Positions 3,561 through 47,498 of a DNA stretch of 47,498 nt are shown in pieces (within the stretch, counting starts at the first letter, position 1; each line of letters starts with the position of its first letter). The notes below the pieces were generated by a model, which worked only from the letters and a program-made list of their open reading frames with translations, was not told where the DNA came from and searched no databases. The DNA is from Ignavibacteriales bacterium CG07_land_8_20_14_0_80_59_12. GTDB taxonomy: Bacteria > Bacteroidota > Ignavibacteria > 0-14-0-80-59-12. The position numbers were made by a program, and so were the translations under genes. The DNA lies in NCBI GenBank assembly GCA_002779395.1, contig PEWR01000053.1, forward strand, positions 1-47,498, in the 5' to 3' direction.

Positions 3561-3579
3561 GGAGCGCTGTCCAGCATCC

Positions 3580-7911: not shown

Positions 7912-7968
7912 TCTGCCTCCGATGGCAAGACATAGAGTACAACAATAAGCTGTGCAGGAACACCGTTC

Positions 7969-23423: not shown

Positions 23424-26400
23424 TCAGCTTCCCTTCGGCCCGCCCGACTCGCCGTCGGTCTTCTTCGGGCTCCAGGAAGCGAGACGTTCGTAACGCTTCC
23501 AGCGGTTCTGTACGTCGGCCTTAGCCCGCTTTAGCAGCAGCTTCGCGGCTTCGGGGTTGCTCTTCGTCAGCATCTTGAAGCGGTTTTCCGAATAGACATA
23601 ATCCTCGAGCCGGAGCTTCGGAGCGCGCGAATCAAGCTGCAACGGGTTTTCGCCTTGTGCTGCACGTTCTGGATTGTACCGGTAGAGGAGCCATTGTCCC
23701 GATTCAACCGCCGCCTTCTGATGCTGCAGCCCCTCCTCGAGCTCAAACCCCTGCTCGATGCAGTGACTGTATGCGATGATGATCGACGGGCCGTTGTATG
23801 CTTCGGCTTCCAGGAATGACTTGAGCGTCTGTTCGTCCCGTGCTCCCATGGCGACCTGCGCGACGTAGACATTGCCGTAGTTCATCGCCATCATCCCGAG
23901 GTCCTTCTTTGAGGTCGGCTTGCCTCCCGCGGCGAACTTTGCCACGGCGCCGACCGGTGTGGACTTCGACATCTGTCCGCCGGTGTTGGAGTACACCTCC
24001 GTATCGAGGACGAGGATGTTGACGTTCCGTCCGCTCGCGAGGACGTGGTCTAGCCCGCCGTATCCGATGTCGTAGGCCCATCCGTCTCCGCCGACGATCC
24101 AGACGCTCTTCTTCACGAGCATGTCGGCGACGCTGAGGAGCTGTTTCACATCGGGGGAGTCGATGCCTTCAAGTTTCTTCTTAAGCTCCGCCACGCGGCC
24201 CCGCTGCTCGTAGATATCTGCTTCGTCCTTCTGCGGTCCGGTGGCGATAGCGTTCGCGAGGTCCTCTCCGATCGTCCCGGCAAGCTTCTTCACGAGCTCC
24301 ATCGCATACTCTTTCTGCTTGTCGATGGAGATGCGGAAGCCGAGCCCGAACTCCGCGTTGTCCTCGAAGAGGGAGTTCGACCAGGCCGGTCCGCGCCCTT
24401 CGGCGTTCTGTGCCCACGGCGTCGTGGGCAGGTTTCCGCCATAGATTGACGAGCACCCGGTCGCGTTCGCAACAATCGCCCGGTCACCGAAAAGCTGAGT
24501 CATAAGCTTCAAGTAAGGGGTTTCACCGCACCCGGCACACGCGCCGGAGAACTCGAAAAGCGGCTCCTGAACCTGCTGCTGGCGGATAGTGTTGACCTTG
24601 ATGTTGCGGCGGTCCATCTCCGGAATCTTGAGGAAGAAGTCCCAGTTCTCCCGCTCGGTCACGCGCAAAGGGGGCTGCGGCGCCATGTTGAGGGCCTTGA
24701 GCCGCGTGACCGACTTGTTCTTTACCGGGCACACATCCACACAGAGGGTGCATCCCGTGCAGTCCTCAGGGGCGACCTGGATTGTGTATTTCATGCCCGT
24801 CCACTCGCGGTCCTTCGATTCCATCCACTTGAATGTTGCGGGAGCGCCCTCGAGATACTTCGGATCGTACACCTTGATGCGGATGACGCCGTGCGGACAC
24901 ACCATGGCGCACTTGCCGCACTGGATGCAGATTTTCTCATCCCAAACCGGGATCTCGAGCGCGATGTTCCTCTTCTCCCACTTCGCGGTCGCGGTCGGGA
25001 ACGTTCCGTCGGCTGAGAACGCGCTCACCGGAAGACCGTCGCCGCGCCCGGCGATGATCTCGCCGAGGGTCTCACGGACGAACGCCGGGGCTTCCGTCGG
25101 AACCGGAGGAGGCATCTCAATCGCGCTCGTGACCTTGTCGGGTACCTTCACCTCGTAGAGATGCGAGAGCGTTTGGTCGACCGCCTTTAGATTCATCGCG
25201 ACAATCTCGTCTCCCTTGCGGCCGTACGTCTTCCTGATCGAGTTCTTGATGGCCTCGATCGCCTCCTCCTTCGGGAGGAGGCCAGTGATCGCGAAGAAGC
25301 AAACCTGCATGACGGTGTTGATGCGTCCGCCCATACCGCTTTCCTTCGCCACCTTGACGGCATCGATGACAAAGAACTTCAGCTTCTTCGCGACGAGCTG
25401 CTCTTGCATCATCCGCGGGAGATGGTCCCACACTTCTTCGGGCCCGTACGGAGCGTTAAGGAGGAATGTCCCACCGTCCACGAGGTCGCTCAGCATGTCG
25501 TACCGCTCAAGGAAGACCGGCTGGTGACAGCCGACGAAGTTCGCCTTCGAGACACGGTAGGTGGAGCGAATCTTCCCGGGACCGAAGCGCAGGTGGGACA
25601 CGGTGACAGTGCCTGACTTCTTCGAGTCATAGACGAAGTAGCCCTGCGCATCGTTGTCCGTGTTTTCGCCGATAATCTTGATGGAATTCTTATTCGCGCC
25701 GACGGTGCCGTCTGCGCCGAGGCCGTAGAAGAGGGCCCGGATCACGCTTTCCGGTTCGGTCGAGAACGACGGGTCGTACGGAAGGCTCGTCTGGAACACG
25801 TCGTCGTTGATGCCGATCGTGAAATGCTTCTTCGGCGACGCGAGAGCCAGGTTGTCGAACACACCTTTCACCATCGCCGGCGTGAACTCCTTCGAGGAAA
25901 GACCGTAGCGTCCGCCGGCAACCTTCACGCAGTCTTTCAGCGAACCCCATCCGTTTTCCTTCGCCTCGTAGAGTGCGTTGACGCAGTCGAGGTAGAGCGG
26001 CTCGCCTGCACTTCCCGGTTCCTTTGTCCTGTCGAGGACGGCAATTGCCCTGACAGTCGCAGGAAGAGCCTCGACGAAGCGCCTCACGTCGAACGGCCGA
26101 TAGAGCCGAACTTTGAGGACCCCGACCTTCTCTCCCTTGTCCGTGAGGTAGTCGACGGTCTCGTGAGCCGTCTCGGCACCGGAGCCCATGATGACGACGA
26201 CGCGTTCTGCATCAGGCGCGCCGTGGTACTCAAAGAGCGAATAGCGGCGGCCGACTATGTCGGCGAACCTGTCCATCGCCTTCTGGACGAGCGCCGGACA
26301 CGCTGCATAGTACGTGTTCACTGTCTCCCGCGTCTGGAAGTAGACGTCTGGGTTCTGTGCAGTGCCGCGAAGAACTGGATGGTCCGGTGACAGCGCGCGG

Positions 26401-27014
26401 GCGCGGTGGCTCAGCACGAGGTCGAGATCGATCATTGCGCGCATGTTCTCCTCGGATATCAGCTCAATCTTCGAGACCTCGTGCGACGTCCGGAACCCGT
26501 CAAAGAAGTGTAGGAACGGTATGCGTGTTTCGAGTGTCGCCGCCTGAGCGATGAGGGCGAAATCCATCGCCTCCTGGACGGATGCGGATGAGAGAAGTGC
26601 GAAACCCGTGGAGCGGGTCGCCATTACATCGGAATGGTCGCCGAAAATCGAGAGCGCCTGTGCCGCCACCGTCCGCGCGGCGACGTGGAACACCGTTGAC
26701 GTCAGCTCGCCCGCTATCTTGTACATGTTCGGGATCATGAGGAGAAGTCCCTGCGACGACGTAAACGTCGTCGTCAGCGAGCCGGTCTGGAGAGCCCCGT
26801 GGACTGCGCCGGAGGCGCCTCCTTCGCTCTGCATCTCCGTCACCGTGGGGATGGTTCCCCAGATGTTCGGCTTCAGTTCCGACGCCCACTGGTCCGACCA
26901 CTCTCCCATCGGCGAGGAAGGCGTGATGGGATAAATGGCGATGACCTCGTTAACGCGGAAGGCAACGTACGCTACTGCTTCATTGCCGTCAATTGTAGTG
27001 AAATCCTTTTTCAT
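23424..27014 (-). CDS. nifJ: Pyruvate:ferredoxin (flavodoxin) oxidoreductase
   Basis: DGNEA, YPITPSS, MQSEGGA, FFDGFRTSHE, two ferredoxin motifs, FSGACAGCGETPY, GGDGWAYDIG. Confidence 0.97.
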   Translation of the reverse strand: MKKDFTTIDGNEAVAYVAFRVNEVIAIYPITPSSPMGEWSDQWASELKPNIWGTIPTVTEMQSEGGASGAVHGALQTGSLTTTFTSSQGLLLMIPNMYKIAGELTSTVFHVAARTVAAQALSIFGDHSDVMATRSTGFALLSSASVQEAMDFALIAQAATLETRIPFLHFFDGFRTSHEVSKIELISEENMRAMIDLDLVLSHRARALSPDHPVLRGTAQNPDVYFQTRETVNTYYAACPALVQKAMDRFADIVGRRYSLFEYHGAPDAERVVVIMGSGAETAHETVDYLTDKGEKVGVLKVRLYRPFDVRRFVEALPATVRAIAVLDRTKEPGSAGEPLYLDCVNALYEAKENGWGSLKDCVKVAGGRYGLSSKEFTPAMVKGVFDNLALASPKKHFTIGINDDVFQTSLPYDPSFSTEPESVIRALFYGLGADGTVGANKNSIKIIGENTDNDAQGYFVYDSKKSGTVTVSHLRFGPGKIRSTYRVSKANFVGCHQPVFLERYDMLSDLVDGGTFLLNAPYGPEEVWDHLPRMMQEQLVAKKLKFFVIDAVKVAKESGMGGRINTVMQVCFFAITGLLPKEEAIEAIKNSIRKTYGRKGDEIVAMNLKAVDQTLSHLYEVKVPDKVTSAIEMPPPVPTEAPAFVRETLGEIIAGRGDGLPVSAFSADGTFPTATAKWEKRNIALEIPVWDEKICIQCGKCAMVCPHGVIRIKVYDPKYLEGAPATFKWMESKDREWTGMKYTIQVAPEDCTGCTLCVDVCPVKNKSVTRLKALNMAPQPPLRVTERENWDFFLKIPEMDRRNIKVNTIRQQQVQEPLFEFSGACAGCGETPYLKLMTQLFGDRAIVANATGCSSIYGGNLPTTPWAQNAEGRGPAWSNSLFEDNAEFGLGFRISIDKQKEYAMELVKKLAGTIGEDLANAIATGPQKDEADIYEQRGRVAELKKKLEGIDSPDVKQLLSVADMLVKKSVWIVGGDGWAYDIGYGGLDHVLASGRNVNILVLDTEVYSNTGGQMSKSTPVGAVAKFAAGGKPTSKKDLGMMAMNYGNVYVAQVAMGARDEQTLKSFLEAEAYNGPSIIIAYSHCIEQGFELEEGLQHQKAAVESGQWLLYRYNPERAAQGENPLQLDSRAPKLRLEDYVYSENRFKMLTKSNPEAAKLLLKRAKADVQNRWKRYERLASWSPKKTDGESGGPKGS

Positions 27015-31282: not shown

Positions 31283-31417
31283 GAACGATTTCCTCCCAAT
31301 CCGGTTGAGGACATTCATCTCTTCGGAAGGCGAGTGACCCTCTCCTGCTCCCCGCCGCCCGCCACGGGCGGGGCCGCCTTCCGTTCACATCTAAGGAATC
31401 GCCTTCAGCCGCGGGGC

Positions 31418-32254
31418 TTATTCGATTGTGACCGGTCCTTCCTGTGCAACAAACCCGATGACGTCTTCCCCGCCGTCAACCCGCAGGACACTGCCGTTGA
31501 TCCAATACGACCGGTCATCACTGAGAAGTGCGATAGCCTTTGCAACGTCGGTTGGTGTGGTGTTGCGGCCGGAGGGATTCTTGTACTGCGCCGCCTTGAG
31601 GAGCCGAAGCCCTCCGGGGATTTTCCTGAGAGCAGGTGTGTCGGTCACTCCCGCCATGATCGCGTTCGCCGTGATCCCTTTCGACCCGAGTTCCATCGTC
31701 AGCTGGCGGATGTGTGCCTCGAGCGCCGCCTTCGCCGCGGAGACCGCGCCATACGACGGCATGGCGGTGTGCCCGCCGGAGCTTGTCATCGCGAAGATCC
31801 GTCCCCCGCGGCGCATGAGCTTCCGTTGGACAAGGCCCTGGACCCAGTAAACGAGGCTGTTTGCCATGACGTCGAGTGTCATCTCCATCTGCGCCTGCGT
31901 GATCGCATCGCGCGGATCCTCTGCAATCAACGGCTTCAGGGTGCCGAAGGCAAGGGAATGAAGGAGGACCTTCACCATCGCATCAGGATCGGGGGCCAGA
32001 CGCTCGGCCATCTCATCGAGCACGTCCTCGCGCTTCACCGGGTCGGCAGCGTTCACGTTGTAGAAGACCGCCTCGACCTCTTTCGAGCGGATCTCCGCAA
32101 CGATCCGGTCGACGTTCGGCATGGTCGAGGCACGACCAAGGTGCACACCGAAGATGTTGTATCCCCCGACAGCGAGTTCTATCGCCGTTGCCTCGCCGAA
32201 CCCGCTTGAAGCACCCAGGATGAGGGCCCAGAGATTCGATTTCCGTTCGGTCAC
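31418..32254 (-). CDS. SDR oxidoreductase, FabL-like enoyl-ACP reductase
   Basis: GGAGG RBS before GTG 32254; LGASSGFG, YGAVSAAK, GVTDTPAL, VDGG. Confidence 0.8.
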   Translation of the reverse strand: MTERKSNLWALILGASSGFGEATAIELAVGGYNIFGVHLGRASTMPNVDRIVAEIRSKEVEAVFYNVNAADPVKREDVLDEMAERLAPDPDAMVKVLLHSLAFGTLKPLIAEDPRDAITQAQMEMTLDVMANSLVYWVQGLVQRKLMRRGGRIFAMTSSGGHTAMPSYGAVSAAKAALEAHIRQLTMELGSKGITANAIMAGVTDTPALRKIPGGLRLLKAAQYKNPSGRNTTPTDVAKAIALLSDDRSYWINGSVLRVDGGEDVIGFVAQEGPVTIE

Positions 32255-32315
32255 GCCTCCTCCCCCCTTTCCGATGAATTCTGAGCCTATTAAGTTACGA
32301 GTTTTCGAGAGAAAT

Positions 32316-33242
32316 TCAACTTTCAAGAACCGTCGCAAGAAGCGCCATCCGCACGGCGATGCCATTCCGCGTCTGGCGGAAGTAAGCGGCGTGGGCGTCC
32401 CCGTCCACTTCCGGCGCAATCTCGTTGAGTCGCGGGAGTGGATGAAGGATGATGGATCCCTCTTTCATCCGGGCGACCTTCGCCGCATCGATGAAGTAAG
32501 ACCGGGCGATCTCATCATATTGGTCGGCACGGTCGCCGAGCCGCTCCCGTTCAATGCGCGTCTGGTAGAGGACATCGACCTCAGGGAGGATCTTTGAGAA
32601 GTCCGACTCAAGCGCAAACCACACGTCGTGTTCCGCAAGGTGGTCGAGGAGATCGGATTTCATCTGAAGGACATCGGGCGCGACGAAATAGATCATCACG
32701 CGGTCAAACTTGCCGAGGAGATACGACAGCGACCTCGCCGTCCGGCCGACGGCGAGGTCGCCGGCGATGGCGATCTTCAACCCTTCGATGGCCCCGCGCT
32801 CCTTGTAGATCGTGTAAAGGTCGAGAAGCGCCTGCGTCGGATGCTGTCCGCCCTTTCCGTCCCCTGCGTTGACAACAGGCACGCTGGACACCGCAGCGGC
32901 CCGCTTTGCGCCCCCGACTTCATCGTGGCGAAGGACGATCACATCAGCGAAATCGCCGAGGACACGGATCGTGTCCGCAAGGGATTCGCCCGAGGCGACC
33001 GAGGAGAACGTCCTGGCGTTTTCGGTCGAGAGAATCTTTCCTCCCAGTCGCAGCATTGCCGACTCAAACGAGAGCCTTGTCCGCGTCGACGGCTCGTAAA
33101 AGAGCGATGCCATGATCTTCGACTGGTAGTCCTGCGTTCCTCCGCGGGCGAGCACTTTCTCCATCTGCCCGGCAATCTGGAACAGCTCCATGAGCATTGG
33201 CAGCGTGAACTGCTGCGACTCAACGACGTGGCGAAGTTTCAT
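32316..33242 (-). CDS. Aspartate carbamoyltransferase-like protein with a divergent active site
   Basis: FYEPSTRT, LRH, HPTQALLD, GRTARS and HPLPR retained; SSVASGESL in place of KGE and TRIERER in place of TRxQxER. Confidence 0.85.
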   Translation of the reverse strand: MKLRHVVESQQFTLPMLMELFQIAGQMEKVLARGGTQDYQSKIMASLFYEPSTRTRLSFESAMLRLGGKILSTENARTFSSVASGESLADTIRVLGDFADVIVLRHDEVGGAKRAAAVSSVPVVNAGDGKGGQHPTQALLDLYTIYKERGAIEGLKIAIAGDLAVGRTARSLSYLLGKFDRVMIYFVAPDVLQMKSDLLDHLAEHDVWFALESDFSKILPEVDVLYQTRIERERLGDRADQYDEIARSYFIDAAKVARMKEGSIILHPLPRLNEIAPEVDGDAHAAYFRQTRNGIAVRMALLATVLES

Positions 33243-34195
33243 GAGAAGACCCTCTCGTCAGGAACGATGTGCGTCCCCGTTCTGCCGCGGACGGCATCGA
33301 GGAGGCATTCGGGAGACGTGATGACGGCTTCCTTCCCCCCGCCCCGGATGAACCGGATCGCCGATGAGATTTTCGGACCCATGTTTCCGGGGGGAAAATG
33401 GCCGTCCGTGAAGTACAGCTCCGCCTCCGATACGGTGATGCGGTCAAGCGCCTGCTGGTTCGGTTTCCGGTAGTTGAGAAAAACCTTCTCAGCATCGGTG
33501 GAGATAATGAACGTATCGACATTCAGCTCGCGAGCGAGCAGAGCAGACACCAGGTCCTTGTCGATCACCGCCTCCACCCCTTCGACGTAGCCGTCGCGGC
33601 GGACGACGGGAATCCCGCCTCCCCCCGCAGCAATGACGATGTACCCGTTGAGGACAAGCCTCCGTATCGCGTCGATCTCGACAATCTCAAGCGGTTCGGG
33701 GGAAGCGACAACCCGCCGGTACCCTCGGTCCGCGTCTTCGACCATCTTCCAGCCGAGCTCCCGTTCCCGGCGGCGTGCCTCTTCCTCCGAGTAGAAAGGT
33801 CCGACCGGTTTCGTCGGGTGGAGGAAGCCGGGATCGTCTCCCCCCACGACCACTTGCGTCAGCACAGTCACCACGGGAACACGCATCGAAGCTTCATCGA
33901 GCGCACGCTGGAGCGCATGCTCGAGAACGTAGCCGATGGAGCCCTGCGTGTCCGCTACGCAGACATCAAGGGGCTCCGGGTGAACCTGCGACGACGCGAG
34001 CTCGGAACGGAGGAGCTGCGCCCCGACCTGCGGTCCATTCCCGTGGGTAAGGACGACGAAGTAGTCGTTTCGAATCAGCTGTGCGATGTACTTCGCCGTG
34101 GTGGCAGCATTGTCACGCTGCTCCGCAACCGTTCCGCGCTGTCCCGCGCGGATGAGGGAATTGCCTCCGATCGCAACAAGGGCGAGCTTCGGCAT
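33239..34195 (-). CDS. arcC: Carbamate kinase
   Basis: GGNSL, THGNGPQVG, KPVGPFY, RRVVASP, GGGGIPV, EAVIDKD, MGPK. Confidence 0.96.
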   Translation of the reverse strand: MPKLALVAIGGNSLIRAGQRGTVAEQRDNAATTAKYIAQLIRNDYFVVLTHGNGPQVGAQLLRSELASSQVHPEPLDVCVADTQGSIGYVLEHALQRALDEASMRVPVVTVLTQVVVGGDDPGFLHPTKPVGPFYSEEEARRRERELGWKMVEDADRGYRRVVASPEPLEIVEIDAIRRLVLNGYIVIAAGGGGIPVVRRDGYVEGVEAVIDKDLVSALLARELNVDTFIISTDAEKVFLNYRKPNQQALDRITVSEAELYFTDGHFPPGNMGPKISSAIRFIRGGGKEAVITSPECLLDAVRGRTGTHIVPDERVFS

Positions 34196-34198
34196 CCG

Positions 34199-35125
34199 CT
34201 ACCCCCGGGCTTTCATGAGGTCGACCATAACCGCCTTCTGCATATGGAGGCGGTTTTCCGCTTCGTCGTAGACGACGGACTGCGTTGAGTCGATCACATC
34301 GTCCGTCACCTCATCGCCCCGGTGCGCCGGGAGGCAATGCATGAAGATCGCGTCCGGCTTTGCGAGCTTCATAAGAGCCGCGTTGACCTGGTAGGGCTTG
34401 AAGATCTCCTTCCGTGCCTCGGCTTCCGCCTCCTGTCCCATGCTTGCCCATACATCCGTGTAGATGACGTCCGCACTTCTCACCGCCTCCTTCGGGTCGT
34501 GGAGGACGCGTATCGTCGCGCCGGTCTCTCTCGCATCTTCGGTGGCAAGGCGGAAGATCTCCGGATTCGGCTCGTATCCTTTCGGGCAGCAGATTGCGAC
34601 GTTCGCCCCGGCCTTCGCACCGCCGAACATTAGCGAGTGCGCGACGTTGTTGCCGTCGCCGACGTAGGTCACGTTCAGTCCCTTCAATGTCCCCCTGTGC
34701 TCCATCATCGTGAAATAGTCGGCCATCGCCTGGCACGGGTGAAGGAGGTCGGTGAGCCCGTTGATGACGGGAATAGTCGCATGCTCGGCGAGTCCGGTGC
34801 AGATGTCGTGTCCGAACGTGCGGATCATGATGCCGTCAACCCAGCGCGAAAGGTTCTTCGCCACATCCTGCACGGACTCCCGCTTCCCGAGAGAGATGTC
34901 CGACGGTGCAAGGTAGACCGCAAAGCCGCCGAGCTGCTGGATGCCGACCTCGAAGGTCACACGCGTGCGGAGCGACTGCTTCTCAAAGATCATCGCGAGG
35001 GTCTTCCCTTTCAGGGCCGACGCATACACCTCCTTGTGCGCTTTCAGATCGCGCCCAAGATCAAAAAGGTGGTGGAACTCATCGAGTGTGAGATCGTGAA
35101 TTGAAATGAAATCTTTCGTGTGCAC
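34199..35125 (-). CDS. argF: Ornithine carbamoyltransferase (ArcB/ArgF)
   Basis: SLRTR, HPCQ, GDGNNV, DVWASMG, HCLP. Confidence 0.96.
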   Translation of the reverse strand: MHTKDFISIHDLTLDEFHHLFDLGRDLKAHKEVYASALKGKTLAMIFEKQSLRTRVTFEVGIQQLGGFAVYLAPSDISLGKRESVQDVAKNLSRWVDGIMIRTFGHDICTGLAEHATIPVINGLTDLLHPCQAMADYFTMMEHRGTLKGLNVTYVGDGNNVAHSLMFGGAKAGANVAICCPKGYEPNPEIFRLATEDARETGATIRVLHDPKEAVRSADVIYTDVWASMGQEAEAEARKEIFKPYQVNAALMKLAKPDAIFMHCLPAHRGDEVTDDVIDSTQSVVYDEAENRLHMQKAVMVDLMKARG

Positions 35126-35148
35126 GGAATCCTCCCTGGTGAGCGTTG

Positions 35149-36489
35149 TCAGCGTGGCAGCTGCCCGTGGAATTTCTCGACGAACGTTTTCAACACATCC
35201 TCGAGTCCGGGCTTCGTGAGCTCATCAAGCTCGTACGTCACACGGACGGCGGGCTTCTCGATCCTCACGATCCGCCGGAGGTCAATCGGCGTACCGACGA
35301 TCACCGTGTCGCACGGGACGCGGTTGATCGTCTCCTCGAGATCTTTCACCTGTTCCTCGCCGTACCCCATGGCCGGCAGGAGCGTTCCCGTCTTCGGGTA
35401 CTTCTTGAACGTCTCCGCGATGGTGCGGACCGCGTACGGCCGTGGATCGACAATCTCTGCGGCGCCGAACTTCTGTGCTGCAACAGTCCCGGCACCGTAC
35501 GTCATGCCGCCATGCGTGACCGTGGGACCGTCCTCCACGACAAGAACGCGCTTCCCCTTAATTGTGGCGCCGTTCCATATCGTGATAGGGGATGCCGCCT
35601 CGATGATCTCCGCCGCCGGATTGATGGAGCGGACGTTCCCACGGACAAGCTTTACGTTTTCAGGCTTCGCGGTGTCAACCTTGTTGATGACGACCACGTC
35701 CGCGAGGCGGACATTCGTCTCGCCCGGGTAGTATGTCAGCTCATGCCCCGGACGGTGCGGGTCGACGACGGTGATCGTGAGGTCGGGCCTGTAGAATGAC
35801 ATGTCGTTGTTGCCGCCGTCCCAGATGATGACATCGGCTTCCTTCTCCGCCTGTCGCAGGACCGCCTCATAGTCGACGCCCGCGTAGATGACGCCGCCCG
35901 CGACAACGTGAGGCTCGTACTCCTCCATCTCCTCGACCGTGCAATTGTATTTCTTCAAGTCATCGATTGTCGCGTAGCGCTGCACCTTCTGCGCCACAAG
36001 ATCACCATAGGGCATCGGATGACGCACAGCGACAACGCGCAAACCCTTCGCCCGGAGGATGTTGACGACCTTCCTCGACGTCTGGCTCTTCCCGCAGCCG
36101 GTCCGGACTGCAACGACGGCGACAACCGGCACGGACGACTTCAACATCGTCTCCCTGGCGCCGAGGAGCGTGAAGTCCGCTCCCGCAGCGATGACAACGG
36201 AGGACTTCTCCATCACGTATTGAAAGGAGACGTCCGAGTAAGCGAACACGACCTCGTCCACTCGGTACTTCTTAATCAGGGCAACAAGCTCCGACTCGGG
36301 ATAAATCGGTATGCCCTGCGGGTAGAGCTTTCCGGCGAGCGCGGCAGGGTATTTGCGTCCCTCGATATTCGGTATTTGTGTTGCGGTGAATGCGACGACA
36401 TTGTAGACTTCGTTGTTACGATAGACGGTATTGAAATTGTGAAAGTCCCTTCCTGCAGCCCCCATGATGAGAATGTTACGGCGCGTCAT
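35149..36489 (-). CDS. arcE: Arginine synthetase ArcE homologue (COG2403; often annotated as GTPase or cyclic 2,3-diphosphoglycerate synthetase-like)
   Basis: GAAGRDFHNFN, AFTATQIP, AVRTGCGKSQTSR, RHPMPYGDL, EEYEPH, WDGGNND, EDGPT, PAMGY; adjacent to OTC and carbamate kinase; ATG 36489. Confidence 0.8.
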   Translation of the reverse strand: MTRRNILIMGAAGRDFHNFNTVYRNNEVYNVVAFTATQIPNIEGRKYPAALAGKLYPQGIPIYPESELVALIKKYRVDEVVFAYSDVSFQYVMEKSSVVIAAGADFTLLGARETMLKSSVPVVAVVAVRTGCGKSQTSRKVVNILRAKGLRVVAVRHPMPYGDLVAQKVQRYATIDDLKKYNCTVEEMEEYEPHVVAGGVIYAGVDYEAVLRQAEKEADVIIWDGGNNDMSFYRPDLTITVVDPHRPGHELTYYPGETNVRLADVVVINKVDTAKPENVKLVRGNVRSINPAAEIIEAASPITIWNGATIKGKRVLVVEDGPTVTHGGMTYGAGTVAAQKFGAAEIVDPRPYAVRTIAETFKKYPKTGTLLPAMGYGEEQVKDLEETINRVPCDTVIVGTPIDLRRIVRIEKPAVRVTYELDELTKPGLEDVLKTFVEKFHGQLPR

Positions 36490-36574
36490 AATACCCCCTG
36501 TCAGTTCACACTCGCCCGCGCGGCCGTCCCTTCCCTGCTGGACGGGACGCCGCAGGCGCTGTTGTTGCACAAGC

Positions 36575-38410
36575 CTATTCTACGGTCACGCTCTTCGCCA
36601 GGTTCCGCGGCTGGTCGACGTTGCAGCCGCGGTCGATGGCGATGTAGTACGCGAGCAACTGGAGCGGAATGATGGTGAGGATGGGTGTGAGGAAATCCAG
36701 TGTGTGCGGAACGCGAAGGACAAAATCGGCGAGCCGGGTGATCTCCTGATCGTTCTCGTCTGCGACGGCAATGAGCCTCCCCTTTCTCGCCTTGACCTCC
36801 TGTATGTTGCTTAGAACCTTTTTGTACGTCCCGTCACGCGGTGTGATGAAGACGACCGGCATGTCCCTGTCGATGAGGGCAATTGGACCGTGCTTCATCT
36901 CCGCTGCTGGATACCCTTCCGCATGAATGTACGAGATCTCCTTCAGCTTCAGGGCACCTTCCAGTGCCACGGGAAAATTGTAGCCGCGGCCGAGGTAGAG
37001 GAAATTCCGTATCGACTGAAATTCACGGGCGATCTCCCTGACAGTCTGTTCCTGCTCGAGTACCTTCTCCGCCTTTTCGGGCAGAATTTCGAGCTCATGG
37101 ACGATGGCCCGCCCCTGGTCCGGGCCAATGGTGCCCCGGAGCCGGCCAAGCATGAGCGTGATGAGAGACAGCGCAGTGAGCTGGGACGTGAAGGCTTTCG
37201 TTGACGCGACGCCGATCTCGGGGCCCGCGTGGAGGTAGGTCCCGCCGTCCGTCTCACGGGCAATGGAGCTGCCCACCACGTTCACGATCCCCGCCGTCGT
37301 CGCTCCCCGGGCGCGCGCCTCGCGGAGCGCTGCGAGCGTATCGGCGGTCTCGCCGCTCTGGCTGATGAGCCACACGACATCCGACGGCCCGACGATCGGA
37401 TTGCGATACCTAAACTCTGACGCATACTCGACACGGACCGGGATCCGCGCGTACTGCTCAAGCATGTACTGGCCTACAAGGCCGGCATGCCATGACGTGC
37501 CGCAGGCAGTGATGGTGAAACGGTCGGCCGCGAGGATGCGGTCCGTGAGCTCACGGAGTCCCCCGAGACGCGCGGTCCCCTCCTTTTCGTTGAGACGGCC
37601 GCGGAGTGTATTCATGATCGTTTCAGGCTGTTCGTGGATCTCCTTCAGCATGAAATGATCATAGCCGCCCTTCTCGATCTGCTCGAGCTCGAGTGTGACC
37701 TCCATTACCTTCTTCATCACGTCGGCGTTCTGGATCGTCTTCGTGACATACCCCGACGGATCGAGCGAGACGATCTCACCATCCTCAAGGTAGACAACCT
37801 GCCGCGTGTTGGAGATGATCGCCGCCGGGTCGGATGCCACGAAGTACTCACCGTTGCCAATTCCCAGGACAAGGGGACTTCCCTTCCGTGCCGCAACAAC
37901 CCTCGACGGCTCACGTGAACTCACGACTGCAATACCGTATGCGCCGTGGACCTCAAGGAGAGCAAGGCGGACAGCCGTGAAGAGATCATGTGAAACCCGG
38001 TACCAGTCCTCGACGAGATGGACGAGCGCCTCGGTGTCAGTCTGCGTTTTGAAGACATGCCCGCCTGCTTCGAGTTTTGACTTGATCGCCGCGTAGTTTT
38101 CTATGATTCCGTTGTGGACGAGTGCAATCTCGCCGGCGCAGTCGAAGTGCGGATGTGCGTTCGTATCGGAAGGTTCACCGTGCGTGGCCCAACGCGTGTG
38201 CCCGATGCCGATTGTCGCAGCCTCGAAGTCCATGGGAATGCCGGCGGCGACGTCGCGCACCTTCCCTGCTTTCTTATGTATAAGAAGATGGCCGTCAGTG
38301 ACCACGGCGACTCCAGCAGAGTCGTAACCGCGGTATTCAAGGCGTTTCAGACCATCGAGGAGGATCGGGAGAGCGGGTTTCTGACCAACATACGCGACGA
38401 TACCGCACAT
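36575..38410 (-). CDS. glmS: Glutamine--fructose-6-phosphate transaminase
   Basis: MCGIV, LEYRGYDSAG, HTRWATHG, SQSGETADT, PRNLAKSVTVE. Confidence 0.98.
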   Translation of the reverse strand: MCGIVAYVGQKPALPILLDGLKRLEYRGYDSAGVAVVTDGHLLIHKKAGKVRDVAAGIPMDFEAATIGIGHTRWATHGEPSDTNAHPHFDCAGEIALVHNGIIENYAAIKSKLEAGGHVFKTQTDTEALVHLVEDWYRVSHDLFTAVRLALLEVHGAYGIAVVSSREPSRVVAARKGSPLVLGIGNGEYFVASDPAAIISNTRQVVYLEDGEIVSLDPSGYVTKTIQNADVMKKVMEVTLELEQIEKGGYDHFMLKEIHEQPETIMNTLRGRLNEKEGTARLGGLRELTDRILAADRFTITACGTSWHAGLVGQYMLEQYARIPVRVEYASEFRYRNPIVGPSDVVWLISQSGETADTLAALREARARGATTAGIVNVVGSSIARETDGGTYLHAGPEIGVASTKAFTSQLTALSLITLMLGRLRGTIGPDQGRAIVHELEILPEKAEKVLEQEQTVREIAREFQSIRNFLYLGRGYNFPVALEGALKLKEISYIHAEGYPAAEMKHGPIALIDRDMPVVFITPRDGTYKKVLSNIQEVKARKGRLIAVADENDQEITRLADFVLRVPHTLDFLTPILTIIPLQLLAYYIAIDRGCNVDQPRNLAKSVTVE

Positions 38411-38451
38411 AGGGGGCCGTCCGTAATCATCTATATATCAATAGGTTCCGA

Positions 38452-38480
38452 AATATACCAAAGCGGTTTCTGAAAAGCAA
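38452..38480 (-). promoter_or_regulatory. Promoter upstream of glmS (probably of the glmS-arc operon)
   Basis: TTGCTT, 17 bp, TATATT with a TGn extension. Confidence 0.55.
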
Positions 38481-38642
38481 ACCCAGGCGGGGCGGAGGGA
38501 GCAGCGCGCAGCCCGCCTGCTGGTTGGGTAAACCTCTTCGGGACCAATTTCGTTCCTCTCCCCGGGAATGGGAGACAGAGCCCGGCGTTCAGATGATCCG
38601 CCGGGCCCGTAAAAGTCGTCTGAAACGCGGTTTCTCCGTACG

Positions 38643-39959
38643 TCAGCGGAGCTGTCCCAGTGCTCTGTGAAGATCATGGATGATGTCATCGACCCGCTCG
38701 AGCCCCACGGAGAGCCTGATCCCTCCCGGGTCGATCCCTTTCTTCACCTGTTCTTCCGGCGGTATCGCCGCATGTGTCATGGAGCCAGGATGCTCAACAA
38801 GTGTTCGGATATTGCCGAGGCTCACTGCCAGGGTCACCGTGTAGGCGTTCTTCGCGAGGTAGTTGATGACCCGCTCGCCGCGCGCCCGCCGTTCCTTCGG
38901 CGTCCTTCCTTTCACCGTGAAATGAATCATGATACCGGGCGCGAAGTTCCCGTCGTAATCGAGCATCTGCCGCTTCGCAACCTCATACTGCGGATGCGAA
39001 GTGAGCCCCGGATACGTCACCGAATCGACATGCTCCTCGGACTCGAGGAACCTGGCGATCTCGATCGCCGATCGTTCCTGGTGCCGGGTCCTGAGCGAGA
39101 GGGTCGGGAGGCCGTAGACAAGGAGCGGCCAGGCGCTCTTCGCGGCAAGGGCGCCGCCGAAGTCCTTCCGGTAGAGAAGCAGCCGGTCGCGGCTCCACGC
39201 CGGCCCGATCACGGCTCCTCCCATGTCCGTCCCGAAACCGCCGATATTCTTCGTCAGAGAGTGCAGAACGAAGTCCGCGCCCAGCTCGATCGGCCGCTGG
39301 CAGAACGGCGTCGCAAAGGTATTATCGATGACGACGTAGATCCTGCTCTCCGCGCTTCTTTTCCTGTTCTCGACTGCAACCACATCGCAGACACCGCGGA
39401 TATCAATGAGCTGCATCGTCGGGTTTACCGGCGACTCAAAATAGACGACACGGGTCCGGCGGCTGATGGAATGCCGGAGGTGGTCAAGGCTCGTGAGGTT
39501 GGCGAACTTCACCCCAATCCTGTAACGCGGGTACCAGTTCGTAAGGAGCGAGTAGGTGCAGCCGTACAACATCCGGTGAGCGACGATCTCATCACCGGTC
39601 GCGGTGAGACAGCCGAGGATCCCCGAGACAGCCGCCATCCCCGTTGTGAAGGTGACCGACGCCGCCCCCGATTCTGCCCGAGCAAGCGTTTCCTCGAGCA
39701 TATCTTTCGTCGGGTCCCCGAGTCGGTCGTAGATGTAAATCGGCGCCCTCGCCTTTACTGCCACCTCGTCCGTTGTGTGAGCGAACTCGACGAAGCCTTG
39801 CGCGCCGCGCTGCGCAGAATCGAGACGGTACGTGCAGCTTGAGGTGATCGGAGGGACAAGATGATGGCTGTAGTCCCAGTGCGGCGTCTTCGCACGGCCG
39901 TAGATGAGCGTGGTTTCGACCGAGTAACTATTGTTCCTTCGCTTCTTCCCGCGTTTCAT
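38643..39959 (-). CDS. Trans-sulfuration family PLP enzyme, methionine gamma-lyase-like
   Basis: YDRLGDPT, GMAA, LYGCT, FESPVNPT, DNTFATP, HSLTK, AVSLG, IRLSVGLE; GGAGG before ATG 39959. Confidence 0.85.
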   Translation of the reverse strand: MKRGKKRRNNSYSVETTLIYGRAKTPHWDYSHHLVPPITSSCTYRLDSAQRGAQGFVEFAHTTDEVAVKARAPIYIYDRLGDPTKDMLEETLARAESGAASVTFTTGMAAVSGILGCLTATGDEIVAHRMLYGCTYSLLTNWYPRYRIGVKFANLTSLDHLRHSISRRTRVVYFESPVNPTMQLIDIRGVCDVVAVENRKRSAESRIYVVIDNTFATPFCQRPIELGADFVLHSLTKNIGGFGTDMGGAVIGPAWSRDRLLLYRKDFGGALAAKSAWPLLVYGLPTLSLRTRHQERSAIEIARFLESEEHVDSVTYPGLTSHPQYEVAKRQMLDYDGNFAPGIMIHFTVKGRTPKERRARGERVINYLAKNAYTVTLAVSLGNIRTLVEHPGSMTHAAIPPEEQVKKGIDPGGIRLSVGLERVDDIIHDLHRALGQLR

Positions 39960-42900
39960 TGGCACCTCCATCGTCTACCGCGCGGCCTCCCGAGACCGGG
40001 AACCGGAAGATGAATGTTGCCCCCTTCCCCTCTTCGCTCTTCACCTCGACCTCCCCGCCGTGCAGGTCGACAATCTGCCTCACGATGGCGAGTCCGAGTC
40101 CCATCCCTTCCGACTTGGTGGAGAAATTCGGTTCGAACAGGTGAGGTCGCACCTCAGGGGGGATCCCGGGACCGTTGTCGTGGATCGAGATTTCGATGCC
40201 CCCTCCTTTCCGTTCAGTGCGGAGTGTGATGCAAGGTGAGGAGGTCCCCCGCACCGCCTGGACGGCGTTGCGGATCACGTTGATGAAGAGGCGGCTGATC
40301 TGGTCCCTGTCAGCCTCGATGACGGAGGCAGTATCTGCAAAATCGCGGACAAAAGCAACATCCCGCTCCGACTCGAAGAGCGACGCGGCGGACGAGAGGA
40401 TCTCGGACGGATTCTGGGGAGTAAAGTGGGGTTCCGGCATCCTTGCGAAGTACGAGAACTCGGAGGCAATGGCACGGAGACTCTCGATGCGGTCGATGAT
40501 TGTGCGCGCGACCTGATCGAGCTCCTCCTTGAAATCCGGCTTCGCATCCCTGTACGCTGCGAGGAGCTGCTGCATCCCCAGCTTCATGGGTGTGAGTGGG
40601 TTCTTGATCTCATGCGCCACCTGCTTTGCCATCTCGCGCCACGCCGCTTCACGCTCCGCTCTCGCGACAAGCTCCCGCGATTCCCGGAGGTCCCTGACCA
40701 TCCCGTTGAACGTCCGCACAAGATCATCGAGCTCGTCGCGTGTCCTCGACTCCACGTTCACCGCAAGGTCACCGCGCGATACTTTCTCTGCTGCTTCCGT
40801 CAGGCGGATCACGGGGGCGCTGATGCGCCGGGAGAGGAGCCAGCCCAGGAAGCCGGCGAGCACAACCATCCCGGCGTACGGCCAGATGCCGAACACGTTT
40901 CTCCGCGCAATCTCGAGATCCACCTGCCCTTCCCTGTAGAGAAGAGGGACGGAGAGGACGAGACGCCGGAAAGAAGAAGCCTGAGCGCCTCCTGCGGCCG
41001 GAGCGTATCCCACCTCGTACGTGAAATCGCCGATCCTCTCAGCGTGCTGGAAGAACCGGTCACACCGAAGAACGATCGCCGCGTATGCCATCCCGTTGAG
41101 CCGGTCGTCAAGGAGCCCTGAAGCGAAGAGCTCCGGCGTGCTGCTCGCAATGAGGGCCGAATCGCTGTAGACATGGACATCGACGCCGGCCAGCTGCGCC
41201 AGGCGCCGGACGAGGCTATCCGCGCTCCCCCCCGCCGCCGACACGTTCGGAAAACCTGCCGTGCTCTTTCCCGGCGTCAGAGGCTCAAGCGAAAGAGAGC
41301 GAGTGAGAAGATCGAGTGAGTTCCTGAGACGCGTCCCCAGTGATTCATTGAACCGGCGTTCGGCGTCCCTCCTGTCGGCCGCCGCCAGGTAAAGGACAGG
41401 AAGGAGAGACACAAAGAGAAACGCTGTCAGCAGGCGGAAGCGGAACGAGAAGCGTCGCCGCCGGATGAGCCCGAGGACGAGGGCGATGAGTCCCAACGCA
41501 AGCGATATCTCCACGACAAGGATGAGCGTCTTCAGGACGACAAACGCATCCCATCGCATGTCGGGGCGCGACAACCGGAACACGAACCTCATCGCCGGGT
41601 CTCCCGGATCAGGGAGGCTGTACTCGTAGACAGACCCGGGGATCTCCATCCACGCTGCAGCTCCTTCGGCGGGAGCGCTCCGGCTCGCCTCGGCGGACCG
41701 TTGCCTCGATAAGGTGGGGACCCGGTCGACGCGGACGTCGAAGAGGGGGTCAAGCTGGGCGGCTGGCAGCTCGGGCCGCAGGAGTTCCGGTATGCCGCTT
41801 GAAAACGGGAAAGGAATCTCCGAAGGAACCGCAACACAGACGCTGCCGAGCGTTTCTCCCTCCTCACCCGTGATGGGTGCAGTGCCGATGTAGGTCCTTC
41901 CCGTGCGCCCCCCTACCACCCAGATCCCTGAGCCATGTTCCGAGCGTGAGAGGAACGACGTGAGGGACCTCATACGCTCCCCGATGGTGAACTGGCTCAC
42001 CGTCTTTCCGGCCGTGTCCAACACAGTGACAGCAGCCCCGTACCCCTGTTTGCCGAGGGGGCTTTCCGCCCAGATGAGGAACGCGAGCGTCGATCGCTCA
42101 TTCTCATCGGGATTGGATGAAGGAGAGCTCAACGCCTCCCTCACCCTCTGGCCGCTCGCCGAACGGAGCGTCTCCTGAACAAGGTATGTAAGCCATGCAT
42201 CCTGCGGCTTCACAAAGCTCGACGCCAGGAGCTCAACATGGTGCCGCGTTCGCTCAGCCTGCTCCCTCGCGATAAAACCGCCGACTGCGACCACGGCGAC
42301 GAGAATTGTCAGGAAGAGGCGGCGAGGGGCGAGGACTCCGCTCTGAAGCAGGGCGGACGGGACGACGACGAGGAGGACCAATCCGAGCGCGACGTGCCAC
42401 TCCATGAGCGGGTTCGGCGAAATCCACCACGCCGTCATCCCGGCGGGGGTCAGCATCACCCAATAGAGAATGCGCATCCTCGGGGGAGCGAGCAGCGAGA
42501 TAAGAATGTGAAGTATGAGAACAAACCCGAGTGTCAATCCGATGAGCGATGCGACGACGGCTGCTCCGGGAATCGAGAGGAGAAGCGACGCCGAATCCCC
42601 GTAGTCAATTGTCGAGTCAGTAACAGCGCTCGCGGCCAATGCAGCCGCACCTCGCCACGCCCAGTAGACGAGTCCCCCGACGACCAGTCCGCCTACGGCG
42701 GACCATCCCCACGAGGGGGACCCGCGGCGCAGAGTTTCGCCGTCTGATGCGGAGAGAGCCCGGGCAGAAGCGGCGACGCTCAAGAGGAAGGTGACGGCCG
42801 TCAGGACGAAATCACCTGGAGACCGCGCGAGTCCAAATCCGAATGACGAGGCAAAGTTCGTCGGATCCGCCAGGGAGGTTCCGATGACGCTGAACGGGAA

Positions 42901-43866: not shown

Positions 43867-43873
43867 GACCGCC

Positions 43874-45547: not shown

Positions 45548-46855
45548 TCAGCGCAGTTCGGGACCCAGGAAGACCTTCCCATGGTTGTAGATGCCGACGG
45601 CTTTGCCGACGAGAGCACGTCCGGCGAACGGTGTGTTTCTTGATCTTGAGTGGAAGAGTGCGGGGTCGACCTTCCAAGCGATGGTGGGATCGACGATAGT
45701 GAGGTTCGCCTTTTCCCCCTCGGCGATTTTCACGATTGGGAGTCCCAGGATTCTCCGCGGGTTGTAGGAGAAGACCTCGGGGAGGCGTTGAAGCGGCAGG
45801 TACCCTGTGCCAACGATCTCTGTGATCACAAGTCCGATCGCTGTCTCGAGTCCGACTATGCCGAAGGGAGCAGCCGCGAACTCCACCTCCTTCTCGTCGA
45901 AGGAATGGGGCGCATGGTCCGTGGCGATGACGTCGATCACTCCGTCGCGCAGCCCCTCGCGCAGCGCCATCATGTCGTCCTTGCTCCGCAGAGGAGGATT
46001 CACCTTGGTGTTCGGATTGAACGAACGGAGCACCTCGTCGTGCAGCGTGAGGTGGTGTGGTGTGACCTCCGCGGTCACATGGAGACCACTTAGCTTCGCA
46101 TCTTTGATCATGTGGACAGAAGCTGCGCAGCTCAGGTGCTGGGCGTGGTAGCGGCCCCCTGTGAACTCGACGATCCGCAGGTCGCGGGCGAGGCATGCCT
46201 CTTCCGCGATGGCGGGGCAGCCGGGGAGCCCGAGCTGCGTGGAGACGGCTCCCTCGTGCACAAGACCGCCCGCCGAAAGGGTCAGATCTTCACAGTGCTG
46301 GAGGATGACCCCTTCAAACATCTTCGTGTACTCAAGCGCAAGGCGCAGGATTCCTCCGGAGGCCACGGGGGCTCCGTCGTCCGTGAAGGCACGGGCACCT
46401 GCGTCCCAAAGCTCAGCGAGCGGTGCCAGGGCGGTCCCCTTCCTCCCACTCGTCACCGTGCCGGCGGGATACACATCAACGGCGCCCCCGAGCGCTTCCA
46501 TGCCGCGCTCGATGACCGTGCGAATGACCGACGCATCGTCCGCCGGTGGATTCGTGTTTGGCATCGTGAGGACGGCGGTGAACCCGCCCGCTGCCGCAGC
46601 AGCGGCGCACGTTGCAATCGTCTCCTTGTACTCATAGCCCGGCTCCCGCGCATGAACGTGCATATCCATGAAGCCCGGGAACACGAGCGCCCCGTGGAGG
46701 TCGACCCTCTCGAGTCCGCCCGTGCTCAGGTCCTCCCCGATGGCTGTGATGAGCCCGTGTTCAATGCGGATGTCCCTCACGGCATCGACCCCAGCGGCAG
46801 GATCGATGATATGAGCCGAGGTGAAAAGCAGATCCATTGTCTTTACCATCGTCAT
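45548..46855 (-). CDS. pyrC: Dihydroorotase
   Basis: PGFMDMHVHAREPG, MPNTNP, HCED, EVTPHHL, KVNPPLR, ATDHAPH, SRNTPF; ATG overlaps the pyrB stop. Confidence 0.96.
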   Translation of the reverse strand: MTMVKTMDLLFTSAHIIDPAAGVDAVRDIRIEHGLITAIGEDLSTGGLERVDLHGALVFPGFMDMHVHAREPGYEYKETIATCAAAAAAGGFTAVLTMPNTNPPADDASVIRTVIERGMEALGGAVDVYPAGTVTSGRKGTALAPLAELWDAGARAFTDDGAPVASGGILRLALEYTKMFEGVILQHCEDLTLSAGGLVHEGAVSTQLGLPGCPAIAEEACLARDLRIVEFTGGRYHAQHLSCAASVHMIKDAKLSGLHVTAEVTPHHLTLHDEVLRSFNPNTKVNPPLRSKDDMMALREGLRDGVIDVIATDHAPHSFDEKEVEFAAAPFGIVGLETAIGLVITEIVGTGYLPLQRLPEVFSYNPRRILGLPIVKIAEGEKANLTIVDPTIAWKVDPALFHSRSRNTPFAGRALVGKAVGIYNHGKVFLGPELR

Positions 46856-47498
46856 GCTCCGAGCGGGCTGAGTGTCAGGAGGTAGAGGACCGCCATGCGG
46901 ATGGCGACGCCGTTCAGCACCTGGTCCAGGATGACGGAATGCTCGCTGTCCGCAACGTCGGCCGACAACTCGACGTCCCTGTTGATCGGACCCGGATGGA
47001 GGATGGTGACGGGGTGCCGCGCGCGCTCGAGCCTCGCGCGTGTGATGCCGAAATAGGTCCGGTACTCGCGGAGGGTTGGGATTCTTGCACCCGCCTCGCG
47101 CTCGAGCTGGATGCGCAGGACATTGAGGGCGTCGACATGCGGTATGAGGTCGTCGATCCTGTGGCAGACATCGACGCCGAGCATCTCGATACCGCGGGGG
47201 ATCATCGTCGGTGGGCCACACACGGTGACCTTCGCCCCCATCGTCCTGAGTCCGTAGATGTTCGAGAGCGCGACGCGGCTGTGCGCAATGTCGCCGACAA
47301 TGCCGATATGAAGCCCTTCGAGCGTGCCGAACTTCTCCTTGAGCGTGAGCATGTCGAGGAGCCCCTGCGTCGGGTGTTCGTGCGCGCCGTCGCCCGCGTT
47401 GAGGACATGCGAGTGGAGAACGCGTGCAAGGAAGTGCGGAGCGCCGGCGGCCGAGTGGCGCATGACCACCATGTCGACCTTCATCGCCTCGATGTTGC
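46852..47498 (-). CDS. pyrB: Aspartate carbamoyltransferase catalytic subunit (5' part outside window)
   Basis: NAGDGAHEHPTQGLLD, GDIAHSRV, LRIQLER, HPGPINR; directly upstream of pyrC. Confidence 0.96.
   Translation of the reverse strand, partial: NIEAMKVDMVVMRHSAAGAPHFLARVLHSHVLNAGDGAHEHPTQGLLDMLTLKEKFGTLEGLHIGIVGDIAHSRVALSNIYGLRTMGAKVTVCGPPTMIPRGIEMLGVDVCHRIDDLIPHVDALNVLRIQLEREAGARIPTLREYRTYFGITRARLERARHPVTILHPGPINRDVELSADVADSEHSVILDQVLNGVAIRMAVLYLLTLSPLGA

Follow-up and report, generated by a model that had tools for sequence, protein, structure and literature searches.

Why should a carbamate kinase gene overlap a gene for an aspartate carbamoyltransferase (ATCase)-fold protein on a stretch of DNA that also carries a canonical pyrB? 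The question is raised by contig PEWR01000053.1 (assembly GCA_002779395.1) of Ignavibacteriales bacterium CG07_land_8_20_14_0_80_59_12, which we analysed over 47,498 nucleotides (the window). On the minus strand, an open reading frame (ORF) at 32316-33242 in the ORF list of the window encodes an ATCase-fold protein of 308 aa, here called PyrB' (gene pyrB'). Its ATG (33242-33240) and the TGA of the carbamate kinase gene arcC (33241-33239) overlap as ATGA (sequence TTCTCATGAAACTT). The overlap had been noticed in an earlier reading of the letters of the window (the sequence-only reading), and ATGA is indeed read at 33239-33242; the canonical pyrB-pyrC pair that it also reported is real, a pyrB fragment at 46852-47496 (LRIQLER, HPGPINR) being followed by pyrC. 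We find that PyrB' represents a real, conserved and mis-annotated transcarbamylase subfamily. As to its role, the reading that we favour, with somewhat less than even confidence, is that PyrB' is not an ATCase and acts as a partner subunit associated with carbamate kinase.

By its profile matches PyrB' passes for an ATCase. It scores above both curated ATCase cut-offs (TIGR00670, 309.8 against 236.95; NF002032, 278 against 263), has both OTCace domains (PF02729, 140.1 bits; PF00185, 80.5 bits) and yields an AlphaFold2 model (pLDDT 88.2, pTM 0.89) that matches Arabidopsis ATCase 6yvb_C with a TM score of 0.94. The carbamoyl-phosphate (CP) motifs that the sequence-only reading called intact (STRT, RH, HPTQ, HPLPR) are so in the ORF translation, as EPSTRTR (S52-T55), LRH (R105), GGQHPTQ (H134, Q137) and HPLPR, and in a phmmer alignment to Arabidopsis ATCase 6ypo (E 1.4e-100), where STRTR, R105, HPTQ, R167, R229 and HPLPR all match. 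The same alignment upholds its description of the 80s loop as SSVASGESL and of the acceptor motif as TRIERER, with K84S and Q231E: in the 80s loop (FSSVASGESL) S84 stands opposite the Lys of AAKGE, and in the 240s motif (TRIERER) E231 stands opposite the Gln of TRIQRER. That the residue numbers 84 and 231 coincide with E. coli ATCase numbering is due to chance. Two features that define ATCases are absent, namely Lys84, which the 80s loop supplies from the adjacent chain and for which PyrB' has Ser, and the RxQxER of the 240s loop, which here reads RIERER. Lys84 substitutions nearly abolish the activity of E. coli ATCase. The RxQxER motif occurs in every known ATCase, according to the cited part of PMC4581275 (this paper, PMC4016543, PMC6981877 and PMC13260591 are drawn on for selected sections throughout).

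The best 120 matches in a collection of 5.8 billion proteins are 64-100% identical to PyrB'; the named ones among them are called aspartate carbamoyltransferase and come from metagenome-assembled genomes (MAGs) of Kryptonia, Ignavibacteria, Rhodothermia and Bacteroidota. Once these 120 were aligned with representatives at 50% identity, 121 of the 241 relatives had E or D at position 231, 118 of these without K84 and three with it, which shows that the 84/231 pattern is not due to chance; K84 and Q231 occur together in 112 relatives and other combinations in eight. At 58-84% identity, members of the clade come from MAGs that bear the labels Kryptoniota, Ignavibacteriota, Bacteroidota, Acidobacteriota and Hyphomicrobiales (Pseudomonadota). 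For a quick maximum-likelihood tree we took 90 rows, namely the window together with 77 genome loci and 12 representatives; the partial rows L064, L066 and L089 were left out and the two trait columns kept in. In it, every row with neither K84 nor Q231 except one (P0135) falls in a single group of 35 rows (SH-aLRT 99), sister to Terriglobia ATCases that have K84 and Q231 (support 87) and lying within ATCases of the Candidate Phyla Radiation (CPR), of DPANN and of plant-like type. P0135 (A84/S231) sits on a long branch just outside the group, in no firm position, and P0133, a long-branch row inside it, is of uncertain placement. The PyrB' clade is monophyletic and nested in the plant/CPR-type ATCases.

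Which parts of the enzyme did the clade keep? Among 43 non-redundant clade members, compared with 130 non-redundant canonical relatives, the CP site and several other residues are largely kept: S52, T53, R54 and S80 are each conserved in 98%, T55, R105, H134 and Q137 in 100%, R167 and T168 in 100%, R229 and E233 in 93%, and the HPLP residues H267, P268, L269 and P270 in 100%, 100%, 91% and 98%. Position 84, Lys in 100% of the canonical relatives, is hypervariable in the clade (M 23%, S 16%, T 14%, and also G, A, Y, L, P, E, R, H and K, among others), and position 231, Gln in 100% of the canonical relatives, is E in 77%, D in 14% (E/D 91%) and R in 5%. R234 (67%) and E50 (81%) are loosened as well, and D162 becomes N or D. 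The clade also has elements of its own. The 130s loop has one inserted residue, G131, in 100% of the clade, where 99% of canonical relatives have a gap, and the K130 before it is kept in 88% of the clade; in the loop RGGTxDY, R33, G34, G35, D38 and Y39 are invariant and T36 reaches 98%, at a place where canonical relatives mostly have a gap (33-34) and, in 82%, a Leu at 39; P15, R181 and Q193 are likewise clade-specific and invariant, and G111 (95%) and W208 (93%) nearly so. The 130s loop of E. coli ATCase touches R167 and is located at the interface of catalytic and regulatory chains, in the surface that binds the latter (PMC6981877, section cited).

Two simple accounts of the altered residues fared poorly. 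A charge swap (E84/R231 in Vicinamibacterales-type members against x84/E231 elsewhere) was rejected as a general rule, there being members with P84/I231, M84/V231 and K84/D231, and a Lys swap, in which K130 would stand in for K84, is weakened by an Acidobacteria-type subclade with A, S or N at position 130.

Some members have gone further. The 240s motif reads TRIVPAQP, TRLESTSQ or TRSDSSLQ in some of them, R229 is H or C in three of 153 clade rows, and in L042, L092 and L094 the CP motif EPSTRTR is replaced by ESG(L/T)LTR; two of these last three are also without R229, and all three lie in ygeW-type clusters (see below). These STRT-less members are mutually 78-80% identical; their dN is 0.13-0.16 and their dS saturated, a pattern like that of their carbamate kinases. 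Since they are conserved, their conserved function needs no canonical CP site.

Could PyrB' simply be a decaying pyrB duplicate without function? The replacement of two ATCase-critical residues might suggest so, and the sequence-only reading had held that a duplicate of this kind would show substitutions unique to one genome and a relaxed dN/dS. Instead, the clade occurs in many genomes and its dN/dS is 0.02-0.07. We compared 12 locus pairs; in five of them, window versus L026 included, dS was saturated in at least one gene, and values are given for finite-dS pairs only. PyrB' has a dN/dS of 0.019-0.070 in the remaining seven pairs, where ArcB, ArcC and ArcE have 0.012-0.105; in the least saturated pair, L032/L033 (dS 0.49), it is 0.070 for PyrB' and 0.085-0.105 for the other three. 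In strength, the purifying selection on PyrB' equals that acting on ArcB, ArcC and ArcE. Together with the multi-phylum spread of the clade, the 112 positions invariant in an alignment of 34 PyrB' sequences and the fixed synteny with arcC described next, this makes decay extremely improbable, and we exclude it.

Genomic context separates the clade from its relatives. A scan with one genome per species gave 80 loci, 33 with clade members and 47 with K84-bearing relatives. arcC lies directly upstream on the same strand in 32 of the 33 clade loci (full length in 31, truncated in L064), the distance from the arcC stop to the pyrB' start ranges from -56 to +82 nt in 31 related loci, and pyrB' directly follows carbamate kinase in seven of seven further loci; an arcE-like gene is found in the flanks of 26 of the 33. 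Near the K84-bearing relatives no ArcB, ArcC or ArcE match was found (0 of 47 loci, up to 8 kb of flank). The exception, L021 (locus 3023-3940), has no arc gene in the 3 kb available upstream, its closest relatives L019, L025 and L027 having the full arcE-arcB-arcC; it is flanked by a 165-aa ORF of unknown family upstream on the other strand and by two DNA-binding-like ORFs downstream. In L064 (locus 7430-8913) the arcC match covers 183 aa and the pyrB' match begins at about residue 115, from a broken pair or an assembly fault. A sample of 121 genomes of the class, which overlaps with the genome-locus set, contains 77 genomes with an arcE-like gene, 69 with a carbamate kinase and 32 with a member of the PyrB' clade. 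In all 32 carriers PyrB' is encoded directly 3' of carbamate kinase, and 31 of them have arcE. All 32 paired kinases belong to a set at least 52% identical to the ArcC of the window (38 full-length kinases, including the window's own), and no clade member was found in the 30 genomes of the sample with a more distant carbamate kinase.

The clusters themselves are of three types: arcE-arcB-arcC-pyrB', as in the window; arcB-arcC-pyrB'-rocD-arcE, where rocD is presumably an ornithine aminotransferase-like gene; and ygeW-like ... ygeY-like-arcC-pyrB' with xanthine-dehydrogenase-like genes, which is without arcB or arcE. Because the arcC-pyrB' pair persists in all three, the constant partner is carbamate kinase. 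The tree that the sequence-only reading had proposed, to see whether a K84-less clade tracks arcE-arcB-arcC, thus gives a divided answer: the clade exists and tracks arc genes, and its invariant neighbour is arcC, not the whole block. Across the three types, pyrB' has no conserved neighbour that would produce or consume a candidate ureido substrate. In the genome of L003 a YgeW-like carbamoyltransferase (333 aa) is encoded directly after a YgeY-like M20 peptidase (409 aa), with an XdhC-like ORF downstream (G000 contig C108, 142-2460; we take the YgeW and YgeY names from their apparent likeness); near-identical pairs precede arcC-pyrB' in L022 and L042, and in the L003 genome the pair is on another contig than arcC.

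Two families of the class hold a second type of ATCase-like protein, with 37-41% identity to PyrB', whose gene comes immediately after arcE, or beside or close to carbamate kinase. It keeps K84 and Q231, its 240s motif reading TRIQDEY (R234 to Y), and its carriers are L090 (G257:C45, 4593-7001), G316, G323, G330, G337, G309, G344, G351, G369 and G375. In G257 it is the only ATCase match at E<=1e-20, and carbamate kinase was not found in that genome. With this second type linked to arcE or arcC, ATCase genes seem to have been recruited to these genes repeatedly.

Might PyrB' then still be an ATCase, a second isozyme that draws arginine-derived CP (from ArcE-ArcB) into pyrimidines with another residue in place of K84? 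Its TIGR00670 score, well above the cut-off, would agree with this, as would the second type just described, a K84/Q231 ATCase-like gene beside arcE or arcC in a sister genome group and the sole ATCase match of G257; K130, next to G131, could in principle reach the active site. The ArcE pathway of T. kodakarensis supplies CP for pyrimidines (PMC13260591, section cited). However, the Acidobacteria-type subclade has no K130, ATCase activity is out of the question for the STRT-less members, and the effect of Lys84 substitutions in E. coli speaks against an ATCase without this residue. Moreover, the carriers already have a canonical ATCase: in a sample of 300 genomes of the phylum, 10 of the 11 clade carriers have a second, canonical ATCase match, the eleventh genome being 89% complete, and the window's own genome (95% complete) has a canonical ATCase match, CarB and ArgG. 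We consider a second isozyme improbable.

To explore a physical link with carbamate kinase, the complex of ArcC and PyrB' was predicted from our own alignments (32 rows for ArcC, 34 for PyrB') beside three controls. The outcome is classed as 'weak support': the score is 0.56 (runs 0.25, 0.56 and 0.57) and that of the best control 0.00, with a partner pLDDT of at least 87 and at least 95% of contacts in agreement between runs. When this score was calibrated, 116 of 157 solved complexes and two of 215 mismatched pairs came up to the mark; among scores of 0.60 or under, only 18 solved complexes and both mismatches reach it. We know of no solved complex of a carbamate kinase with an ATCase, so that a memory effect in the prediction seems unlikely.

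We thus arrive at a role of PyrB' at carbamate kinase that would be independent of carbamoyl transfer because: (i), the pairing with the kinase gene is strict in all cluster types; (ii), the STRT-less members are under selection; and (iii), the docking prediction passes, if weakly. From the retained CP pocket and trimer-interface residues we argue that most clade members would still bind CP or a similar ligand. PyrB' would be produced along with carbamate kinase and may dock on it and, in most members, its pocket may bind CP or a related ligand with no carbamoyl transfer to aspartate; it would then hand over, hold or gate the CP released by a catabolic transcarbamylase, which could be ArcB fed by ArcE or, in purine-type clusters, the YgeW-like enzyme, for the formation of ATP. 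PyrB' thus probably has its place in the catabolism of arginine or purines for ATP, and not in the making of pyrimidines. It is tempting to go one step further, to a picture that we hold to be possible and yet doubtful: PyrB' would be a pseudo-transcarbamylase turned dedicated carbamate kinase subunit, an ATCase-derived trimer that docks via its 130s-loop and RGGTxDY surfaces and whose pocket holds or delivers CP, or senses a nucleotide such as UMP (as do its plant-type ancestors with the same F-S-S loop), thereby gating the ATP-yielding step of arginine and purine fermentation. If true, PyrB' would be the first known regulatory or channelling subunit of a carbamate kinase, and the transcarbamylase fold would have its first member without catalytic activity.

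Several observations weigh against a partner subunit. The complex prediction is a weak pass only, obtained from our own alignments and returning no interface. No fusion of carbamate kinase with PyrB' was found among longer homologous proteins, the best of which are plant and CAD ATCases at up to 54% identity, none with PF00696, and this is weak negative evidence; to our knowledge, a non-catalytic partner with the transcarbamylase fold has not been reported for any carbamate kinase. Six of the 38 same-type kinases (at least 52% identity) and 46 of the 77 ArcE genomes are without PyrB', which is therefore not needed for the pathway, and the adjacency counts are not independent events, since relatives inherit gene order. 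STRT, R105, H134, Q137, R167 and R229 are all kept in 147 of 153 clade rows, the degree of retention expected of an active transcarbamylase. Lastly, the loss of K84 alone does not abolish catalysis, because ornithine carbamoyltransferases (OTCases) transfer carbamoyl without a Lys at the 80s-loop position (PMC4581275, Table 1).

These last points lead to the main and serious rival, that PyrB' is an active carbamoyltransferase with an acceptor other than aspartate, which either phosphorolyses an N-carbamoyl compound to give CP and, via carbamate kinase, ATP, or puts arc-derived CP onto another amine. The replacements of K84 by various residues and of Q231 by E or D lower the positive charge of the acceptor pocket, and would be in keeping with a substrate that has one carboxylate less, or that carries an amide or amine instead of the beta-carboxylate of aspartate. 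The full CP site, R167, T168, R229 (93%) and E233 (93%) are kept across phyla, with E or D at 231 in 91%, and the dN/dS of PyrB' is low. There is precedent as well: the 'pseudo-ATCase' Rxyl_2847, encoded beside carbamate kinase, is a ureidoglycine carbamoyltransferase (UGTCase; PMC4016543, section cited), and according to the cited part of PMC4581275 catabolic transcarbamylases are typically encoded near carbamate kinase, the 80s-loop residue varying among active transcarbamylases (its Table 1). However, residue 84 is hypervariable, R234 is kept in only 67%, the 240s motif is degraded in some members, and the three STRT-less members stay conserved beside carbamate kinase; no ureido-substrate gene is shared by the three cluster types, and no acceptor can be named from the data. 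On balance we judge a new acceptor rather unlikely. The sequence-only reading had proposed a candidate new carbamoyltransferase; that PyrB' is not an ordinary ATCase and belongs to a conserved clade stands, while the STRT-less members and the weak complex pass tilt the evidence towards a non-catalytic subunit associated with carbamate kinase.

How does PyrB' compare with known systems? Its nearest likeness is the plant/CPR-type ATCase (Arabidopsis PYRB, 6ypo/6yvb), with which it shares the fold (52% identity in the structural alignment), CP motifs, length, the F-S-S start of the CP loop (ENARxFSS) and the lack of a PyrI partner, PF01948 not being found in the window's own, 95% complete genome. 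In contrast to that type, PyrB' is without K84, has E for Q231, carries the extra G131 and the RGGTxDY loop, and is encoded after carbamate kinase, not with pyr genes, in genomes where a canonical ATCase is also present. The pseudo-ATCases of Barba et al. 2013 (PMC4016543), UGTCase Rxyl_2847 among them, are similar in being ATCase-branch paralogues annotated as ATCase that keep STRT and HPTQ and have an altered RxQ, and their subgroup 1, which acts catabolically, is likewise next to carbamate kinase. By Table 1 of that paper, their motif 3 is HPLA, H[ST]LP or HSLP and their R230-Q232 motif 4 AIA/AIS/SIA, GX[SC] or VXP, whereas the PyrB' clade keeps HPLP (at least 91%) and R229 (93%), the motif here being RIE with only Q231 changed; the modelled UGTCase site keeps the 80s-loop Lys (K106*, PMC4581275, Table 1), which PyrB' has lost; and the gene context appears to differ, being purine/allantoin or hydantoin in the cited sections and arcE-arcB-arcC, rocD or ygeW/ygeY/xdh-like genes here. 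With HPLP and R229 kept and the Lys lost, the PyrB' clade is an offshoot distinct from the Barba pseudo-ATCases. Catabolic OTCase, putrescine carbamoyltransferase and YgeW resemble PyrB' in pairing their genes with carbamate kinase in the ATP-yielding catabolism of ureido compounds; unlike PyrB', they belong to the OTCase or knotted branches. The same clusters already encode ArcB or a YgeW-like enzyme, so that PyrB' comes as an addition. The inactive dihydroorotase-like subunit of Pseudomonas ATCase, an inactive enzyme paralogue that serves as a structural subunit in CP metabolism, offers an analogy for how PyrB' may work, as an enzyme-fold paralogue selected as partner of a pathway enzyme, although fold and partner differ.

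In a literature search on pseudo-ATCase and ATCase-like proteins only Barba 2013 was relevant, and no published description of the PyrB' clade was found. Neither pyrB nor aspartate carbamoyltransferase occurs in the main text of the ArcE paper PMC11032458 (supplement aside), and the cited parts of the main text of PMC13260591 mention the housekeeping pyrB only and no ATCase paralogue.

Two observations concern the relatives of the clade. In the Saccharibacteria MAG loci L057 and L058, K84 is kept, TRIQKER is replaced by GRIPKEY (T228G, Q231P, R234Y) and there are no arc neighbours, a separate remodelling of the aspartate motif. In ATCases of CPR, DPANN and Terriglobia (L037, L038, L039-L056) the CP loop is identical or nearly identical to the plant loop AREFSSAAKGETLE, its Phe included. 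In plant ATCase this Phe is needed for inhibition by UMP, and the loop is the element most distinct from non-plant ATCases (PMC7878868), so that a UMP-type feedback may exist in these prokaryotes too.

The surroundings of pyrB' in the window are compiled below. The arcE-like protein has weak similarity to cyclic 2,3-diphosphoglycerate synthetase (9sxb_A, E 2.4e-06), and no curated family reaches its cut-off in profile scans. A weak likeness of the same kind has been reported for ArcE homologues (PMC11032458), and the gene, by its P-loop, this likeness and its place beside arcB-arcC, fits the published description and is a putative arcE. In the window and five related loci (L016, L026, L028, L040 and L044), arcE has glmS immediately ahead of it on its own strand, and in these same six a short-chain dehydrogenase/reductase (SDR) gene, FabL-like below the cut-off, follows pyrB'. 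Downstream of the SDR gene the window has an etfB-etfA-acyl-CoA dehydrogenase set, a continuation of the block also seen in L026. A scan of 31300-38700 gave three promoter-like sites (1.7 +/- 1.4 in shuffles) and two terminator-like ones (5.2 +/- 2.5 in shuffles), none of either between arcE and pyrB', and is uninformative against the shuffles. A search of sequencing runs matched 20 DNA runs (groundwater, aquifer and sediment metagenomes) and no RNA run, and has no bearing on expression. Further off on the minus strand are ORFs that we named by eye, a 1340-aa multi-pass membrane histidine-kinase-like one (39928-43950) and a 1196-aa pyruvate:ferredoxin oxidoreductase-like one (23424-27014), which fit an anaerobic fermentative lifestyle.

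Table. Coordinates of pyrB' and of the features around it in the window.
Feature	Positions	Strand	Basis or remark
pyrB' (PyrB'), ATCase-fold paralogue, member of the K84-less/E231 clade	32316..33242	-	TIGR00670, PF02729, PF00185, AlphaFold2 model
ATGA, overlap of arcC stop and pyrB' start	33239..33242	-	sequence read
Codon 84, TCG (Ser), where the ATCase 80s loop has Lys84	32991..32993	-	
Codon 231, GAA (Glu), where ATCase RxQxER has Gln231	32550..32552	-	
K130-G131, 130s loop (GDGKGGQHPTQ), clade-specific one-residue insertion	32850..32855	-	
R33-G34-G35-T36-Q37-D38-Y39 loop	33126..33146	-	invariant in clade except position 37 (T36 98%)
arcC, carbamate kinase, 318 aa	33239..34195	-	TIGR00746, 378.9 bits against cut-off 358.25
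arcB, ornithine carbamoyltransferase, 308 aa	34199..35125	-	NF001986, 445.6 bits against cut-off 306; TIGR00658, 422 bits
arcE-like P-loop gene, putative arginine synthetase, 446 aa from ATG at 36489	35149..36489	-	
glmS	36575..38410	-	head of the glmS / arcE-like / arcB / arcC / pyrB' run
Canonical pyrB, C-terminal 214 aa, cut by contig end, then pyrC	46852..47496	-	LRIQLER, HPGPINR; PF02729 match 47335-47493

For the whole clade, the database name aspartate carbamoyltransferase is very probably wrong. The clade turns up in roughly one in four of the genomes sampled from the class (32 of 121) and also in Acidobacteriota and other MAGs. To many bacterial versions of the ArcE pathway, a pathway described only in 2024 (Michimori 2024), it adds a fourth component that had gone unrecognised; it is present in ygeW-type purine clusters as well. 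The function of PyrB' would reveal either a new transcarbamylase acceptor or the way in which labile CP is delivered to carbamate kinase or kept away from it. In either case, the clade is a natural experiment on the active-site residues that make an ATCase specific for aspartate.

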